Shown: positions 1 to 61,035, numbered from the stretch's first letter. The stretch: 61,035 nucleotides of DNA from Nanobdellota archaeon (GCA_021846665.1 JAJZWM010000003.1:1-61035); one strand, 5' to 3'. Notes: generated by a model from the letters alone, not told the origin. A program made the numbers and translations.

Positions 1-941
1 CCTTTTTTAACGGTCTTTATTTCTTCTGCCGATAATACAGACCTACCAAGTGCAATAAGTTCTCCTTTAAGTGTCATTATACCTATAACTTCGTCTTTAT
101 TGAAATCTGTAAATTTAACTATGCCTGGAACAGCAAGAGGAGAACCATGACAGATAGGATCAACAGCTGTATCGGAAATAAAAACCTTTGGCAAAAAGTC
201 TATTGCTGACTCTATACTTCCAAGACATTTATTTAACAGCCTTTCGTCATTTTCTTTCTCATAAAAATAAACCGCATCTTCTAAATCCTGTAATGTGACT
301 AGGTTATCTTTCTCTGACAGCGTTGAAACCTTTGTCCTTCTTAGCTCTACCATGTGTGCGCCGATTTTTAACTCCTCTCCCATGTCATGTATAAGCTTTC
401 TTATATATGTTCCAGATTCTACGCCAACTTTAAAAAGAACATCTTTTCCGTCTATTTCCAATATCTCAGAATAGTATATCTCTCTTTGTCTATACTGCCG
501 TTTAACATGAGATCTAACTGGTGGTAATTGCATTATTTTCCCTATGAATTTGTTAAACGTATCTCTAAGTAATTGCTCATCGACTTCACTATGCAGATGC
601 ATCAGAGCTATGTATTCCTTCCCCCCAAAAAGAAGCACTGGGAGAACCTTCGTAGCATTATTTATAGCCAGAGGCAAAAGGCCTGTTACATTAGGATTTC
701 TTCAATCTTCTAAAGTCCCTGAGTAACCTACCTTCTTTGCACCCAGTCCTGCTATAATATTCTTTGCTATGTAGGCTGCGGTCTTAGACCTTATACCTGC
801 TGGTTTATCCAGAAGTATAAAACCGTAGTTTATCCTTTCCTTTATGCTTCTATCCTTTGGAGCTTTACCGTATCTGCTATCGGTTTCTTCCTCTCTCAAG
901 GAAAAGACTTCGTGTTTGAAATCCTCCAAAGGCAGTTTCAT
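1..941 (-). CDS. cbf5: Pseudouridine synthase Cbf5 (H/ACA RNP catalytic subunit). The C-terminus runs off the window start. The frame is interrupted by an in-frame TGA (702-704) inside the catalytic motif.
   Basis: N-terminal ORF 702-941 ends ...LLDKPAGIRSKTAAY...KKVGYSGTLED*. Continuing in the same frame gives RNPNVTGLLPLAINNATKVLP...GKEYIALMHLH...LPPVRS...GTYIRKLIHDMG...HMVELRRTK, followed by a PUA-like tail (DTAVDPICHGSPLAVPGI...). This is collinear with archaeal Cbf5 (GHGGTLDPKVTGVLPVA...KEY..MHLH). Confidence 0.85.
698..709 (-). other. Candidate 12-nt bulge-helix-loop (relaxed BHB) mini-intron in cbf5 mRNA. An equivalent register is 697-708.
   Basis: mRNA reads 5'-GUUAC UCA GGGA CUUU AG^AAGAUU GAAG AA^A UCCU AAU GUAAC-3'. 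Outer helices are GUUAC/GUAAC (5 bp) and GGGA/UCCU (4 bp). The central 4-bp helix is CUUU/GAAG, with a 3-nt AAA bulge on the 3' strand and an 8-nt loop on the other side. Cutting at the canonical positions removes AAGAUUGAAGAA, which contains the UGA, and joins ACU UUA G|AU CCU to give T-L-D-P. Confidence 0.55.
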
Positions 942-15252: not shown

Positions 15253-15756
15253 ATGAAAATTGATGTTATAAGAACAGATTCGAAAGAGATTGTAGAAAAA
15301 TTAAAGAATCTTGGATTTGACAGGATATTTCTGCTAAAAGAGCATAGCATAAAGGATATTACAAAAAATGAAAATAACGAATTCGATGCGTATTCTGGGA
15401 AAGACTATAATTTCATTATCAGAAAAGGGAAAGCAAGATTTATTTATGATTTAGAAATCAACAATTTTCTTCTTAATAAAGGACTCTGTAGTAAGCTAAA
15501 GGAAAATAAAATTACTGTTATATTTAGTTTTTCTGCACTTGAAAAAAGCGAAAATATGTTTAAAGTTTACAAAAACATGCTTATAAATGGGAAACTTTGC
15601 AATGATTATGGTGTGAACTGTTTATACTCTTCAGGATCTGAAAACACTAGCGATGTAAAATCCTTTTTCCAGCTTTGTGCCTTTGCTGAAGAATTCGGTT
15701 ATAACTACAAGAATATGTTAAATAGTATAAAAAAAGTAACAGAATTGGTTAATTAA
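15253..15756 (+). CDS. Possible short RNase P protein component 3 (Rpp30-like)
   Basis: The C-terminal pattern (...ITVIFSFSALEKSEN...LCNDYGVNCLYSSGSENTSDVKS...) resembles the Rpp30 TIM-barrel C-terminal half. At 167 aa it is shorter than usual. Confidence 0.4.
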   Translation: MKIDVIRTDSKEIVEKLKNLGFDRIFLLKEHSIKDITKNENNEFDAYSGKDYNFIIRKGKARFIYDLEINNFLLNKGLCSKLKENKITVIFSFSALEKSENMFKVYKNMLINGKLCNDYGVNCLYSSGSENTSDVKSFFQLCAFAEEFGYNYKNMLNSIKKVTELVN

Positions 15757-23169: not shown

Positions 23170-23494
23170 TGCTACTTAATAGATCATTTCTTATTATTAA
23201 ATACTTTTTGTAATTATTATAATCATTTATATTTATCTTTTCCGTCTTGTCTGCCCTTACTTCAAAAGAGGAATCAGCAGCAATACTCCTGCCTGTAACA
23301 ATAACTAAATCTTCCGGTTCTAACTTTATATTTTCCTGATAATTAGGAAGACAAGTTATTCTTTGATTATCATCTTCTACTTCAAACACACCTGTTTTAT
23401 CATCAAATGAAATTACCTTTCCAATAAACCTAATTCTTGCATTATCCTCTTTTATCTCCTTAATTTCAGTATCCTTTATTACCTGATTTTCCAT
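23159..23494 (-). CDS. OB-fold nucleic-acid-binding protein (RPA/SSB-like small subunit?)
   Basis: IRFIGKVISFDDKTGVFEVEDDNQRITC...LVIVTGR resembles the tRNA_anti/OB fold. 11-nt overlap with the pcn start. Confidence 0.35.
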   Translation of the reverse strand: MENQVIKDTEIKEIKEDNARIRFIGKVISFDDKTGVFEVEDDNQRITCLPNYQENIKLEPEDLVIVTGRSIAADSSFEVRADKTEKININDYNNYKKYLIIRNDLLSSNGS

Positions 23495-23961
23495 TAACTA
23501 GTAGAGTTTACCACTGTTATGTTTATAGGGATTATCTTATAATTTACACAGTTGAGATAGCTTGCTGATATGTTTGCGGTAACTGGGTAATTTCCTATTT
23601 TTGAAGGGGAATAAACTCCAAAACTTGTGTATCCTCTTGTACTAACATTAAGCTTTGTGGAATTTGCAACTTGAATAGAAAATGGTACGCTTTCAGAGGG
23701 TTTTACAGTCAGAGCAATATTTTCAGTTACATTACCAGTGTTATTTACCCTAATAGTAAAAAATGTGTTGGTATTCTCTGGTGCTTTTACATTCGTATTT
23801 GTGGTATAACTAAATCCAAGATTGACAGAGTTGCAGTTTATGGTCTGAACCACTGGTGCTTTATAAGCCGGAGAAGTTTTTCCAGCTGCTATAAACCCAA
23901 TTAAAAGCACTATCAATAAAGCAAGTAATAAATAGTTTCTGAATCCTTTCATAGTTATCAT
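23494..23961 (-). CDS. Secreted or anchored beta-sandwich (CARDB-like) protein
   Basis: N-terminal signal/TM segment, then a VNNTGNVTENIALTV-type pattern with several sequons. Confidence 0.45.
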   Translation of the reverse strand: MITMKGFRNYLLLALLIVLLIGFIAAGKTSPAYKAPVVQTINCNSVNLGFSYTTNTNVKAPENTNTFFTIRVNNTGNVTENIALTVKPSESVPFSIQVANSTKLNVSTRGYTSFGVYSPSKIGNYPVTANISASYLNCVNYKIIPINITVVNSTS

Positions 23962-24880: not shown

Positions 24881-25285
24881 TTAAATCTTATTGTCTTGGT
24901 TGCTTAATACTTCTCCTTTTTCAACCTTTACAAAATCAGGCACTACTAAAAGATAATCTTCATCCACACCGATTATCTGTGCTTCTGCGGCATCGGCACT
25001 TTTCTTTAATTTAGAAATAGTCCTCTTTAATTCATCTACACCATCTTTTTCCCTTATCTCCTTAATCTTTATGAATGATAATGTATATCCAGAGCGTATA
25101 TCGTTTAGTATGGCACTAGCATCCTCAAACTTATTGATATTGTAGTATTTTACATATATTTTAGCCATCGGCTTGTCTCCTTGCTCAACCTCTAATTCAA
25201 CGTAGTCATTTCCCTGATTAGAGGAATCTACATTTACATTCTTCTTGAATATATTCAAGAAATTATCAAATGGAAGATTTACCAT
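24881..25285 (-). CDS. sepF: Cell division protein SepF-like (DUF552)
   Basis: The C-terminal domain pattern (IYVKYYNINKFEDASAILNDIRSGYTLSFIKI...AQIIGVDEDYLLVVPDFVKVEK) matches SepF. ATG at 25285 is preceded by GAGGTG. The track start at 25291 is a GTG. Confidence 0.6.
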   Translation of the reverse strand: MVNLPFDNFLNIFKKNVNVDSSNQGNDYVELEVEQGDKPMAKIYVKYYNINKFEDASAILNDIRSGYTLSFIKIKEIREKDGVDELKRTISKLKKSADAAEAQIIGVDEDYLLVVPDFVKVEKGEVLSNQDNKI

Positions 25286-25375
25286 GTTCACACCTCACAA
25301 CTCAATATTAATACTAAAGAAGATAAGAAAATTTTAGTATTTAAGTTTATCATTATCCTTTCTGTATAAAATAAA

Positions 25376-39124: not shown

Positions 39125-39592
39125 ATGGATAATAAAGAAAATAAAAAATTAAGAGAGAGGCTATTCAGAGACCGACCGCTAAGTGGTATATCATTAAATG
39201 AATTTGAAAGGCCTACAAATGATTATAATACAAATCTAAGAAGATTTTGCATTTCTCTAGGGCTTATAAGTCCGGGAGAAAGTAGAATAGCGATAGTTTA
39301 CTTGCTTGATATACTGCTTAAGGCAAGAAAAAAGAGACCTGAGGGATTAGACAGCTATGAGATAATAAAGGAGCTATATAAAAGGAAAGTAAAGATAGTA
39401 TATGCAAATATTCTTAGAGATTTGAGGAAACTGATAGCTGTTGGATTAGTTGAAAAAAGAAATAATTTTTACAGAATAAAGGAAAATATGAAACTTAATG
39501 AGATAATATCAAGTTTTATAAAACCTTACATAATAGATAGGATGCTTAGCAAAATAGAAGAATACGCCAAATCTATAGACAAAACAAATTAA
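39125..39592 (+). CDS. Putative winged-helix DNA-binding protein
   Basis: Central ...IAIVYLLDILLKARKK...SYEIIKEL...LRDLRKLIAVGLVEKRNNFYRI resembles a wHTH. Starts 6 nt downstream of the coiled-coil gene. Confidence 0.4.
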   Translation: MDNKENKKLRERLFRDRPLSGISLNEFERPTNDYNTNLRRFCISLGLISPGESRIAIVYLLDILLKARKKRPEGLDSYEIIKELYKRKVKIVYANILRDLRKLIAVGLVEKRNNFYRIKENMKLNEIISSFIKPYIIDRMLSKIEEYAKSIDKTN

Positions 39593-39889: not shown

Positions 39890-40468
39890 TTATAATTTTT
39901 TATAGGGTATAATATCTAATTTTCTTGCATTAACACTATCCTCTAAATTATCTACAAATTCAGTTGAACGCTCTATTTCATTTATCTCTTTAAGAATTTT
40001 CTTTATATTTTTATTTTTGTTATTCTCTTTATAAACCGGCTTGTTATAATTTACATTTAAAAATAGGTTATCAGGATTATCCATTTCTATTTTATATATA
40101 TTAGTTATATCATATATGACATCATCCAAAATATCCTGAAGATACTGTCCGAGGTAAGGTTTTACAAGATATTCCCTCAATCCATTTTGCAATCTATTAC
40201 CAAATGAAAGCTTATCACATTCAAAGGCATACTGCTTTAAGGTCTCTGCTATACCGCATAGAGAATTCTCAAGACTGTATTTTCTGCTGTTTAGCTTTGC
40301 TCTTTCCAGATCTTTGTAATTAAAATCTGGGCCGTCTACAATTGCACGTATATAAGCAAGACCCTCCTTTCTGCTTTCGATAATAAGCTTATGAAGTTCT
40401 GATGCTTCCCTTCTTATTTCTATTTTATCATTAAGATTTTCCATACCTAAATATTCAAGATTAAACAT
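39890..40468 (-). CDS. Hypothetical protein
   Basis: 192-aa ORF upstream of the wHTH gene on the same strand. No motif recognised. Confidence 0.45.
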   Translation of the reverse strand: MFNLEYLGMENLNDKIEIRREASELHKLIIESRKEGLAYIRAIVDGPDFNYKDLERAKLNSRKYSLENSLCGIAETLKQYAFECDKLSFGNRLQNGLREYLVKPYLGQYLQDILDDVIYDITNIYKIEMDNPDNLFLNVNYNKPVYKENNKNKNIKKILKEINEIERSTEFVDNLEDSVNARKLDIIPYKKL

Positions 40469-48401: not shown

Positions 48402-48500
48402 TGGCCTGGCCGAGATTTGGACTCGGGACCCCTGCTTTTCCTAAAATGTTGGAGCATACTCATATAAGAGCAGTGCTCTACCGGGCTAAGCTACCAGGCC
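48402..48500 (-). tRNA. tRNA-Ile (anticodon UAU) with a 25-nt intron at 37/38
   Basis: GGCCTGG/CCAGGCC acceptor. Anticodon stem CTGCT/AGCAG. Loop C-U-UAU-A, then the intron. CUUA (32-35) pairs with intron UAGG, flanked by bulges UA^U and AA^A. T-arm CCGAGTCCAAATCTCGG. Confidence 0.8.
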
Positions 48501-48549: not shown

Positions 48550-49035
48550 TTAAATGTATTCTGTAATTAAACTAGCATTAATAGATTTTATTGACAAACT
48601 TTTAATAGAAAATTCTAGGGCTTTTTCAAGGATAGGAACCTCATAAAAACCAGCATCAGTACCGATTAAGCTATAGGTTTCCTCAAGTTCATTTTTTATT
48701 TTCTTAACTTTGTCTGCTTGATAATTGTAGTTTAATAATATCTCAATGTTTTCATTTCTAGTCCTACTGTAATCCTTGAAAGCGCTTTTCACAATTAAAT
48801 AAACTGCTCTTTTAAGCTTACTTTCGTTTTCAAGGTACTTTGGATTCAAGCAGTATTCTATAGAATTAGCGGTATAAAGTTTGGCATATTTCCTATTTAT
48901 GCTTATTGAAGAATTACTGTTTCTAGAAGCATTTACTGTTAGCTCGTAAATAGACTTCTTGTTAAGAAGCTTATCTAACTCTTCTGCTGAGCATTTATTT
49001 CCCTTTATCAATATATCACGTAGCTGCTGTTCCAT
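48550..49035 (-). CDS. Hypothetical protein, third gene of the RHH/CysD-like operon
   Basis: ATG at 49035 lies 1 nt after the upstream stop. The track's longer start (49050) is a TTG. No motif recognised. Confidence 0.5.
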   Translation of the reverse strand: MEQQLRDILIKGNKCSAEELDKLLNKKSIYELTVNASRNSNSSISINRKYAKLYTANSIEYCLNPKYLENESKLKRAVYLIVKSAFKDYSRTRNENIEILLNYNYQADKVKKIKNELEETYSLIGTDAGFYEVPILEKALEFSIKSLSIKSINASLITEYI

Positions 49036-49036
49036 T

Positions 49037-49867
49037 TCACATGTAACCAAAAAGCCTAAGCTTTTCCATTACTCCTTCCTTATCTTGTGACCTGCCTGCT
49101 CTTTCCTTAGTATGTTCAAGATCCTGCTCCCACGCTGGTAAATCGCTTGTCTTCTTTGAATCAAGTTTACCATCTATTGACCTGTATCCAAGTTTATACA
49201 ATGGATGTATTGGTAAGTTGTACTTGAATATATACTCCCAAACGTTTCTTTCAGCAAATGGCAATATTGGCTGTACTCTCACATGATCTGGATGAGTTCT
49301 TGGACTTATAAAAACCTCTATGGATCTTGCTTCATTTTCGTCCCACCTAACGCCAGTAAATAGCGCATCAAACCTGTATTTTTCTATTGCCATGTTCATT
49401 GCAACTGTTTTCAATAAGTGGTTTCCAACTTCTGTTTCTAGACTATAATCAAACTCATCTCCATTGAAGCCTATCCTTCTAGCTTCATCTTGATTTATTT
49501 TATTAAGAGCACTTATCTTTATTTTGTTATCCTTCCCTACGTTTTTGATAACATCCTCGTTCTTCGCGTATACCATCTTAAATCCCCATTCCTTGCTTAT
49601 GTCATCAAGCATCTTCATGGTTTCATCGTAATGCTGACCATGATCTATGAATAATGCAGGAGGCAATTGCATCCCCAAATCTTTACATGCTCTCCTTACT
49701 AGATCCAAAACCACAGTACTATCTTTCCCAGCACTCCAAACAACTGTTGGTCTATTATATCTTTTTAATGCATCCTTTATTACTATAAGTGCAATTTCTT
49801 CCTTTGCTTCTAAGCTTAATCCTCCTTCTACCCTTTGTTTTTTTACCGAATACTGTTCATTTTCCAT
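49037..49867 (-). CDS. PAPS-reductase/CysD-like PP-loop ATP pyrophosphatase
   Basis: VVWSAGKDSTVV PP-loop and GVRWDENEAR. The C-terminus ERAGRSQDKEGVMEKLRLFGYM is collinear with the CysD C-terminus (...GSMELKKRQGYF in E. coli, from memory). Confidence 0.75.
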   Translation of the reverse strand: MENEQYSVKKQRVEGGLSLEAKEEIALIVIKDALKRYNRPTVVWSAGKDSTVVLDLVRRACKDLGMQLPPALFIDHGQHYDETMKMLDDISKEWGFKMVYAKNEDVIKNVGKDNKIKISALNKINQDEARRIGFNGDEFDYSLETEVGNHLLKTVAMNMAIEKYRFDALFTGVRWDENEARSIEVFISPRTHPDHVRVQPILPFAERNVWEYIFKYNLPIHPLYKLGYRSIDGKLDSKKTSDLPAWEQDLEHTKERAGRSQDKEGVMEKLRLFGYM

Positions 49868-50170: not shown

Positions 50171-50500
50171 TTACATTGAAAACAAAATAAAACCTAAAAC
50201 AATTAACGGCAACGCAATTGCATCACCATAAAAACCTGATATATATGTTCCCTGCAAAAATGAAGAAGTAACTAATGTCGGGTTTAAAACGTATTGAATC
50301 AAGGTTATAATATAACTTATAGATATAGCAAGCATGCTTGCTAGAATAATAATTAAACCGCTTACCTTCTTTCTTGGATTTGCAAAGAAAAGAACTAAGA
50401 ACCTTTCCATCTTATGCATATTAACATAAAACATAAAAAATGCTATAACCCATGCAGCTGCAATTAAAAGCGCAATAGGTAAAGGAATACTAAAACTCAT
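50171..50500 (-). CDS. Small integral membrane protein
   Basis: 109 aa with 3 TM segments. GGAGGT ribosome-binding site. ATGA-type overlap with the upstream gene. Confidence 0.5.
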   Translation of the reverse strand: MSFSIPLPIALLIAAAWVIAFFMFYVNMHKMERFLVLFFANPRKKVSGLIIILASMLAISISYIITLIQYVLNPTLVTSSFLQGTYISGFYGDAIALPLIVLGFILFSM

Positions 50501-50985
50501 AAGAACCTCCTAAAATAATTAAAGTAAAGACCATATGAAAAGTAAGCTATTAGAAGCGATAAAACAGCAAGAAGCCAAAAAGCTACAACTAAACCATAGG
50601 CAAGAAATAATCTTGTAACTACGTTTATAGCGAAAACCATTGTAGCTAGAAAACCAAATAAAAGCAGAATCTCTATTCTCTTAATAAAAACTTTTGACCT
50701 TTCTTTATTCAGAAAAAATCCAGTCCAAGGGGCTTTATCCTTTACATGTTTGGTATTGACAAACAGTATCAATGCTAAAAAAACAACTGTTATTAATGCC
50801 CCTATTAACGTTACTATCCTTGCTGTTATAAGCGCAATTTCAACAAAATTTGTAAAGCTTACAATACTTATTGGTTTGAATACCACTGAAAAAGAAGCAG
50901 CGATATCTCCACCTACTGCTATAACTGCTATTATACTTATTGTTATAAGTACAATTAGATTTAACCTCGTTTGATTAAACTTCAT
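50497..50985 (-). CDS. Integral membrane protein
   Basis: 162 aa with 4 TM segments. Confidence 0.5.
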   Translation of the reverse strand: MKFNQTRLNLIVLITISIIAVIAVGGDIAASFSVVFKPISIVSFTNFVEIALITARIVTLIGALITVVFLALILFVNTKHVKDKAPWTGFFLNKERSKVFIKRIEILLLFGFLATMVFAINVVTRLFLAYGLVVAFWLLAVLSLLIAYFSYGLYFNYFRRFL

Positions 50986-60363: not shown

Positions 60364-61035
60364 TTAAACTACACTTCCAAAGCTCACGGAAGGCATTACT
60401 CCGCTTGGAGGATAATTCCTAACATCTAACCAAGTTACATTTACTTCAGTTCCACTAACTGGTCCACAACCAGCACCATTTCTAAAGAGTACTGTTCGTA
60501 ATGGATAATTTTCAGGATTGTTATTTAACTGAGAAGTGTAATTAAGTAAGTAGCCCATGTTTGTACCCTTATTAATAAGAGAGAACACTTCTTGATTCCC
60601 TATTAATTCAGTACTATTATAAAAATTCATAGCTGCCTGACTGACATTTCCATACTGATAATATATCCAAGAGGTTGGGGGGTTTTGTAGCTGCGCCCAT
60701 CCTGCAGAATCGTGTTCGGAAGAATTGTACCATCCTAGAATAGTCCAACCACAGTAACGGGAAGGATTAGAGATATAATCACCTTGCCAGTCTAATGCTA
60801 CGGGCAAGGAAAAGTTTTCTTTGTTATAATAAAATTCCACTCCAACTGGAGAAAAATCTATAGTAAACCCATTATGCACTTGAACATATTGGGTAGTACT
60901 TGAATCACCTGTAGTCCACCCTGCTGGATAAACTGTTCCTTTAAAATTCTGATAATAATTAAACACATTGACACCATTATCGTATTCTGCATAATTTGAA
61001 CAGCTTGAAGTTGGAGTTGAACCGCATGGTATCTG
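60364..61035 (-). CDS. Extracellular beta-rich protein, C-terminal part only. The frame stays open to the window edge.
   Basis: The frame upstream of the track's GTG start (60966) has no stop through 61035. Rich in Trp/Tyr/Asn with several sequons. Ends ...WLDVRNYPPSGVMPSVSFGSVV. Confidence 0.5.
   Translation of the reverse strand, partial: QIPCGSTPTSSCSNYAEYDNGVNVFNYYQNFKGTVYPAGWTTGDSSTTQYVQVHNGFTIDFSPVGVEFYYNKENFSLPVALDWQGDYISNPSRYCGWTILGWYNSSEHDSAGWAQLQNPPTSWIYYQYGNVSQAAMNFYNSTELIGNQEVFSLINKGTNMGYLLNYTSQLNNNPENYPLRTVLFRNGAGCGPVSGTEVNVTWLDVRNYPPSGVMPSVSFGSVV

Follow-up and report, generated by a model that had tools for sequence, protein, structure and literature searches.

The cbf5 gene of a Nanobdellota archaeon is interrupted, within the codon of its catalytic aspartate, by 12 nt that carry an in-frame UGA. 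The gene lies at the start of a 61,035-nt stretch of DNA (GCA_021846665.1, JAJZWM010000003.1:1-61035), referred to here as the window, and an earlier note on this DNA had interpreted the interruption as an mRNA mini-intron. Our analysis supports this interpretation: with a probability of roughly 0.88, nucleotides 709-698 are a bulge-helix-bulge (BHB)-type intron in the cbf5 pre-mRNA that is removed by the tRNA splicing endonuclease. The evidence consists of the conservation of the insert, length variants that shift the reading frame, exon bases that are frozen at synonymous sites and a compensatory change in the central helix of the predicted RNA structure.

The window encodes cbf5 on the minus strand, on which all features of the gene and its transcript described below lie. 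The gene starts with an ATG at 941 and runs past the left edge of the window, which cuts off ∼23 C-terminal codons and has no biological meaning. Without splicing, the frame reads ...KKVGYSGTLED*RNPNVTGLLPLAI... and is then open up to the left edge. Translation of the minus strand therefore bore out two claims of the earlier note, that a TGA lies in frame (UGA, 704-702) and that both halves of cbf5 are in the same frame. In silico deletion of 709-698 (AAGAUUGAAGAA) converted GTLED*RNPNVTG to GTLDPNVTG. More specifically, the deletion yielded the codons ACU UUA GAU CCU, encoding T-L-D-P with the catalytic Asp back in place as had been predicted, and a 309-codon open frame in the window. The predicted spliced junction is ...GGGACUUUAG^AUCCUAAUG..., where the caret marks the join, and the predicted junction peptide of the spliced Cbf5 is VGYSGTLDPNVTGLLPLAINNATK.

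Exon 1 (941-710) comprises 232 nt, corresponding to 77 codons and the first letter (G) of the catalytic Asp codon, and encodes the DKCLD domain together with the GYSGTL portion of motif II. The orthologous exon-1 open reading frames (ORFs), of 78-79 aa, match PF08068 (DKCLD) in Pfam. Exon 2 (697-1, continuing off the left edge) begins with the AU of the Asp codon and encodes the TruB catalytic and PUA domains. An origin of the 12 nt by tandem duplication was ruled out, as the insert is no repeat of its flanks.

The host, an acid-mine archaeon, belongs to the Parvarchaeum/ARMAN-4 clade (DPANN), in agreement with the earlier view that the genome is non-crenarchaeal. We scanned one genome per GTDB species, which yielded 13 loci with 78-94% protein identity. 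These loci are labelled as Parvarchaeota, Nanoarchaeota or, in one case, Woesearchaeota metagenome-assembled genomes, and one of them is the ARMAN-4 (Candidatus Parvarchaeum acidiphilum) scaffold GG730049. A 12-nt insert with an in-frame TGA was present at the cbf5 site in all 13, that of ARMAN-4 (L009) included, and was also present in further metagenome contigs from different studies, at identities down to 66%. Overall, alignment with related cbf5 genes showed a 12-nt insert in every one of the 21 further distinct loci of the Parvarchaeum clade that were fetched (protein identity 66-94%), and the UGA was kept in all Parvarchaeum variants of this length. With the 12 nt removed, all 21 complete orthologues gave an intact Cbf5 of 332-340 aa. 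Among 20 distinct orthologues, the median ratio of nonsynonymous to synonymous substitution rates (dN/dS) was 0.12 for exon 1 and 0.056 for exon 2, at a dS of ∼1, which is near saturation. These values indicate that both exons are under strong purifying selection.

The pattern of variation differed between the insert and the exon bases that adjoin it. Positions 1, 2 and 6-12 of the insert were invariant, and only positions 3-5, three bases of the loop, varied (G/A/C/U, A/C/U and U/C, respectively). The middle in-frame 'codon' of the insert varies at all three positions and would specify D, N, H, Y, A or V depending on the species; read unspliced, the gene has no conserved Asp. That this 'codon' varies freely while the nine flanking intron bases stay fixed argues that the insert is non-coding. 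Within cbf5, synonymous variation was found in 134 of 146 degenerate codons whose amino acid is invariant. Codons 74-78 (UCA GGG ACU UUA GAU) are five consecutive members of the 12 that showed none. The spliced coding sequence contains a single invariant run of at least 9 nt, nt 220-236, with the junction at nt 232 inside it, and the frozen exon bases are exactly the pairing partners of the intron and of UCCY. The corresponding codons of intronless sister Parvarchaeota (59-69% identity) read GGY ACN YUN GAY CCN, with third positions free. These data indicate that the exon around the junction is under RNA-level constraint and behaves as a structured RNA.

Related lineages carry inserts of other lengths at the same site. 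One of these, at 64% identity to the window Cbf5 (L016), has a 16-nt insert and reads GGGACUUUAG^UGUGAUUCACAAAGAA^AUCCC, the carets marking the two junctions. Two Woesearchaeota-like contigs have a 14-nt insert (L033, 57% identity; CUCUAG^AGUAAUUCAGAGAA^AUCCU) and a 12-nt insert of different sequence that contains an in-frame UAA (L038; CUCUAG^AGUAAAAGAGAA^AUCCU). The remaining two inserts are of 17 nt (L035, 49% identity; CUCUAG^AGGAAUAAGCCGGAGAA^ACCCA) and 23 nt (L036, 44% identity; CUCUAG^AGGCCUGAGAAAUGGCCGGAGCG^AUCCG); the identities of L033, L035 and L036 were computed over exon 2. Four of the five variants, those of 14, 16, 17 and 23 nt, shift the reading frame, and in each variant a full-length Cbf5 with G-T-L-D-P is obtained only on excision at the canonical bulge positions. 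In all of them, the junction that is needed coincides with the one expected from a 4-bp helix, CUYU/RRAG, with a 3-nt bulge on its 3' side to be cut after the second base and AG^N on its 5' side. For the 16-nt variant, the junction can be placed in one way only.

In L016, L035 and L036, the three bases of the 5' site form a true 3-nt bulge, with an inner helix closing. L036 adopts the complete hBHBh' arrangement (outer helix h, central helix H and inner helix h', separated by the bulges B) as its minimum-free-energy fold, with GGCC/GGCC as the inner helix and an additional A left unpaired between h and H. L016 forms the full hBHBh' (inner helix GUG/CAC) only if the register is enforced, the unconstrained fold being 4 kcal/mol lower and in another register. 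As a separate observation, exon 2 of L036 (2501-3232, P0186) is short of ∼16 residues (GEIFQKPPVRAAVKRE) that are found in its close homologue P0253; a second interruption, a deletion and a fault in the assembly are all possible causes of this gap. A metagenome scan by protein alignment yielded six loci and added intronless sisters and little intron diversity. One apparently truncated gene (L037, P0346) proved to be an intronless cbf5 with a miscalled start.

Covariation was evaluated over the conserved-length parts of an alignment of 11 distinct sequences. The proportion of cells that were paired was 93% overall and 100% in the central helix H, versus 37-54% in slid registers, and none of 500 shuffles matched either the covariation score or the percentage paired. 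The third pair of helix H changes from U-A to C-G in four sequences, the change on the exon side being the synonymous UUA to CUA, and another pair switches from U-G to U-A. In the distal helix, one pair changes from U-A to C-G in three sequences; the complementarity of this helix is partly inherent in the coding sequence and is weak evidence. Within the Parvarchaeum clade alone, no double changes were detected. Across the 11 sequences, the structure is thus conserved with covariation, which is one of the marks by which a BHB intron is recognized.

The minimum-free-energy fold of 727-685 (GUUAC UCA GGGA CUUU AGAAGAUU GAAG AAA UCCU AAU GUAAC) reproduced the structure described in the earlier note and added a single A-U pair within the 8-nt loop. 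The distal helix pairs GUUAC (727-723) with GUAAC (689-685) across a 3x3 internal loop. It is followed by the outer helix h, in which GGGA (719-716) pairs with UCCU (696-693) and a G-U pair becomes G-C in relatives, by the 3-nt AAA bulge and by the central 4-bp helix H, in which CUUU (715-712) pairs with GAAG (703-700); CUUU(A)/(U)GAAG closes the loop. The 5' splice site, AG^A (711-709), is formed by the three bases with which the 8-nt loop AGAAGAUU begins, with the predicted cut between 710 and 709. The 3' splice site, AA^A (699-697), is the 3-nt bulge, with the predicted cut between 698 and 697, and its AAA is retained in all DPANN variants. Cutting after the second bulge residue at each site removes 709-698 and leaves UUA GAU CCU. 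The UGA is formed by a U of the loop and the first GA of the GAAG strand, and so lies inside the predicted intron. A relaxed motif of this type (hBH, or bulge-helix-loop, BHL) is the minimum-free-energy fold in the window, in ARMAN-4 and in L038. In the spliced mRNA (727-710 joined to 697-685), GGGA and UCCU still pair, giving the hairpin GGGA-CUUUAGA-UCCU with a total of -7.8 kcal/mol.

According to the mechanism that we propose, the exon sequence GGGA-CUUU of the transcript would pair with UCCU of the exon and GAAG of the intron. The fold would present the AAA bulge as the 3' site and, on the opposite strand at a distance of 4 bp, the AGA with which the loop begins as the 5' site. The tRNA splicing endonuclease would cut after the second base of each site (AG^A and AA^A), and a tRNA ligase of the RtcB type would join ...CUUUAG to AUCCU.... 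Ligation would recreate the GAU codon of the catalytic Asp and thereby an uninterrupted Cbf5 of 332 aa. Translation of the unspliced mRNA would terminate at the in-frame UGA.

A cbf5 intron is known from Crenarchaeota, where it separates the first letter of the catalytic Asp codon from the second (Yokobori et al. 2009, PMC2738675) and is cleaved between bulge residues 2 and 3 (PMC2738675). The junction in the window, G710 to A697 U696, is at this same position, between letters 1 and 2 of the Asp codon. The insert of the Parvarchaeum clade therefore shares gene, junction and cut rule with the intron of the Desulfurococcales and Sulfolobales (Watanabe 2002, Yoshinari 2006, Yokobori 2009), which is likewise often a relaxed BHB formed partly of exon bases and has a patchy distribution, with intronless close relatives. 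The crenarchaeal motifs are mostly unconventional BHBs that are cut by a hetero-oligomeric endonuclease, with cDNA proof in several species; the introns measure 16-44 bp and have been lost patchily within the Desulfurococcales (PMC2738675). By contrast with this TACK intron, the one described here has a DPANN host and a length of 12 nt, and the endonuclease reported for ARMAN-4/-5 is α4 rather than (αβ)2. The evidence also differs, as the crenarchaeal introns are cDNA-confirmed in several species, whereas the Parvarchaeum intron is known here from sequence and was compared by way of published descriptions. The features common to the DPANN and Bathyarchaeia-like variants (CUYUAG^ and RRAG-AA^A) are all dictated by exon pairing.

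The suggestion that 12 nt is at or below the smallest known intron size holds for protein-gene introns, with their 16-44 bp, and does not hold for tRNA introns, which reach down to 11 nt (PMC2738675). Reviews from 2020 and 2023 confine the cbf5 intron to a small group of related archaea. Our full-text literature search returned no report of a DPANN cbf5 intron, which is absence of evidence only. The intron would be the first of its kind in DPANN and, at 12 nt, the smallest in a protein gene.

Three further systems provide points of comparison. Relaxed hBH/BHL introns of tRNAs, such as that at position 59/60 of ARMAN-2 pre-tRNA-Cys, which is processed by an ε2 EndA, have the same succession of helix, 3-nt bulge, 4-bp helix and loop and a near-minimal length. 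They differ from the cbf5 insert in that the latter lies in the coding region of an mRNA and in that the ARMAN-2 intron is served by a broad-specificity enzyme that is reportedly absent from ARMAN-4/-5. The HVO_1309 intron of Haloferax volcanii (Schwarz 2020) is likewise an mRNA substrate of the endonuclease in a non-crenarchaeal host with a narrow-specificity enzyme; it is located in a 5' untranslated region, has a strict BHB and was verified experimentally, whereas the cbf5 intron lies inside a codon. Finally, the 12-bp insertions of the rudivirus SIRV1 (Peng 2004, as described in PMC2738675) are units of the same size that occur in frame in archaeal protein-coding sequence. As that account presents them, they are viral, vary with passage and have no demonstrated BHB or splicing, and their likeness to the cbf5 insert is in length only.

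Several observations weigh against the intron. First, the energy of the fold is not significant on its own (z = -1.7 to -2.1; 8-12 of 200 shuffles fold equally well), and it is the comparative data, not the fold energy, that make the case for more than chance. Second, the motif in the window is relaxed (helix-bulge-helix-loop): the strict hBHBh' motif was not found there, as the 5' site lies in the 8-nt loop and the inner helix h' amounts to at most one A-U pair. Third, the covariation derives from few independent events among related sequences, which weakens it. Fourth, the per-assembly scan revealed no second cbf5, but it was not a whole-genome search for a second cbf5 or a β subunit. Fifth, α4 EndAs without specificity loops are described as cutting strict BHB motifs only (PMC3239211, PMC5829648). 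Finally, we infer cleavage, ligation and the identity of the acting enzyme from nucleotide sequence.

The nature of the enzyme merits particular attention. Relaxed motifs are associated with (αβ)2 or ε2 endonucleases, and the earlier note had expected one of these forms. The literature on the closest characterized relative does not agree with this expectation: ARMAN-4/-5 have a single 177-aa α4-type EndA, and that of ARMAN-4 was singled out as being without the L3 loop of the other DPANN α4 enzymes (PMC3239211, PMC5829648), yet ARMAN-4 carries the 12-nt insert. This tension has one of three solutions: the α4 enzyme is broader in specificity than assumed, the conserved A2-U6 pair suffices by closing a triloop or a partner subunit was missed. 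The window itself contains a tRNA-Ile(UAU) with an intron (99 nt, 48402-48500, minus strand; 53 bits in Rfam), which was missed by ARAGORN. The intron comprises 25 nt (48438-48462) at position 37/38 and, by inspection, is framed by a BHB with the helix CUUA/UAGG and the bulges UA^U and AA^A. Because this tRNA contains an intron, a splicing endonuclease and a ligase must both function in the organism. No Pfam match to EndA was detected among 20 window ORFs, which include every ORF of 145-230 aa except the syntenic cytidylate kinase. Seven window ORFs of 155-200 aa had no Pfam match at E ≤ 0.001 (15253-15756, 23494-23961, 39125-39592, 39890-40468, 48550-49050, 50497-50985 and 60364-60966).

We considered four other explanations of the interrupted gene. 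The one that survives best, and to which we still accord only a slim chance, is a split gene, in which a 79-aa N-terminal fragment assembles with a C-terminal fragment translated from a downstream start. Some Nanoarchaeum proteins are made as two assembling polypeptides, DPANN genomes are generally known to contain split genes and gene callers do find a downstream start. However, the called starts vary by species (MTG, MPLA, MAIN, MNNA and MHLH), and a split protein would lose the catalytic Asp. Moreover, the P-N-V-T-G-L-L stretch that follows the stop varies only synonymously (CCY AAY GUR ACN GGY CUN YUN). Its purely synonymous changes show that this stretch is translated in that frame, yet no start codon precedes it.

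Recoding, by which the UGA would be read through or decoded as selenocysteine, Trp or Gly to give a Cbf5 with four extra residues, is more improbable again. The 12-nt insert of the Parvarchaeum clade is in frame, as recoding would require, but related lineages have inserts of 14, 16, 17 and 23 nt at this site, which are incompatible with read-through. The unspliced reading destroys GTLDP and places D, N, H, Y, A or V at the variable position, and the frozen synonymous sites point to RNA structure rather than to a peptide. In addition, TGA terminates 12 of the 51 long ORFs of the window and is therefore an ordinary stop in a standard genetic code.

It is highly improbable that cbf5 is a pseudogene, or the product of a sequencing or assembly error, broken by a 12-nt stop-bearing insertion. 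An in-frame TGA within an essential catalytic motif might suggest as much, and public pipelines call a truncated protein only. Against this, the insert occupies the same site in 13 independent species assemblies and in contigs of different studies, purifying selection on both halves is strong, with dS saturated, and the genome scan returned a single cbf5 locus for each assembly, with no intact paralogue. Conservation of the insert, the intact spliced coding sequences and the dN/dS values together exclude a pseudogene or assembly error. Translational bypass or frameshifting across the insert, as in T4 gene 60, has just as little to recommend it: a stop codon and a hairpin at the gap superficially resemble a bypass signal, but an Asp codon assembled from a G upstream and an AU downstream is beyond ribosome hopping, there are no matching take-off and landing codons and five different gap lengths all follow the endonuclease cut rule. 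Neither a split gene nor recoding nor bypass explains the frame-shifting variants or the purely synonymous variation of P-N-V-T-G-L-L, and none of the three supplies an Asp codon that must be put together from both sides of the insert. Overall, a BHB-type intron accounts best for the data.

The distribution of the intron was examined in a neighbour-joining tree of cbf5 with bootstrap. The Parvarchaeum clade with the 12-nt insert grouped together (bootstrap 94), as did an intronless clade (bootstrap 89). The 16-nt lineage grouped with two intronless sequences (bootstrap 74), and the two Woesearchaeota-like carriers were placed among intronless relatives. This patchy distribution, which resembles that in the Desulfurococcales, could reflect either an early gain followed by recurrent loss or gain on more than one occasion.

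The interruption has also led to errors in public gene calls. The Parvarchaeum cbf5 calls in NCBI, JGI and ENA are C-terminal fragments of 223-260 aa named 'Cbf5' (P0001, P0004, P0012, P0018, P0020-P0035 and P0105). They start 3-32 codons or more past the junction, with the MTG.., MPLA.., MAIN.., MNNA.. and MHLH.. starts mentioned above, and all are without the catalytic Asp and the DKCLD domain; the exon-1 ORF, of 78-85 aa, is called separately. Outside DPANN, a similar truncation was observed in the relatives of P0124 (P0383-P0501), whose nearest named relative is Candidatus Bathyarchaeia: 111 of 119 were called at <300 aa, as fragments of ∼254 aa, and 96 of the 119 start with (M/V)TG(V/I)LP, corresponding to a GTG three codons past the Asp. 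In the P0124 clade, the intron was read at the DNA level in L035 (17 nt) and L036 (23 nt) only. Beyond these two, the truncation suggests that the cbf5 intron may be widespread, and systematically misannotated, in Bathyarchaeia-like archaea.

A scan of the whole window for BHB motifs and ORF merging recovered the cbf5 intron and otherwise 67 matches at chance level, the sequence being AT-rich, with no second convincing case. The window also encodes SepF (24881-25291), PCNA, TFIIE-alpha, PTH2, ribosomal protein S2 and a PAC2-family protein, a gene content that is consistent with a DPANN archaeon. The gene order around cbf5 is conserved, with a large STT3-like membrane protein followed by cytidylate kinase and cbf5. 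In one relative (L031, 1-558), an IS605 OrfB/TnpB (Cas12f-like) gene takes the place of the STT3-like gene upstream of cytidylate kinase-cbf5. In a Parvarchaeota contig (L034, 2269-2955), a 228-aa ORF resembling LAGLIDADG_3 homing endonucleases lies directly downstream of the intron-bearing cbf5. Five Cbf5 homologues (P0127, P0130, P0134, P0139 and P0198) are 727-837 aa long and matched the query in two stretches. Query residues 1-105 aligned to 80-184 of P0127 and residues 93-223 to 677-807 of P0130, which suggests an insertion of ∼490 aa that, judged by these alignments, looks like an intein or another large insertion.

Essentially one case of introns in archaeal protein-coding genes is known, that of cbf5 in two crenarchaeal orders. 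The same intron, in the same codon phase, in DPANN (Parvarchaeum and two Woesearchaeota-like contigs) and apparently in a large Bathyarchaeia-like clade widens this picture. The conserved coding sequence of G-T-L-D-P is by itself half a BHB and might predispose the site to intron gain. A tentative and rather doubtful extension is that the cbf5 intron is either ancient, predating the split of DPANN and TACK with many subsequent losses, or marks a hot-spot of recurrent insertion. The hot-spot idea stems from that half-BHB, whose GGGA...UCCY pair persists in the spliced mRNA. According to the same extension, the Parvarchaeum form would be a near-minimal 12-nt helix-bulge-helix-loop that is cut, against the strict-BHB rule, by an α4 endonuclease without a specificity loop, and the in-frame stop would act as a fail-safe against translation of the unspliced message. 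Ancient origin and repeated gain can now be tested against each other. Misannotation of Cbf5 distorts completeness estimates and metabolic inferences for the genomes that carry the intron. If it is spliced, the cbf5 transcript of Parvarchaeum would be a natural substrate that challenges the link between α4 architecture and strict BHB specificity.

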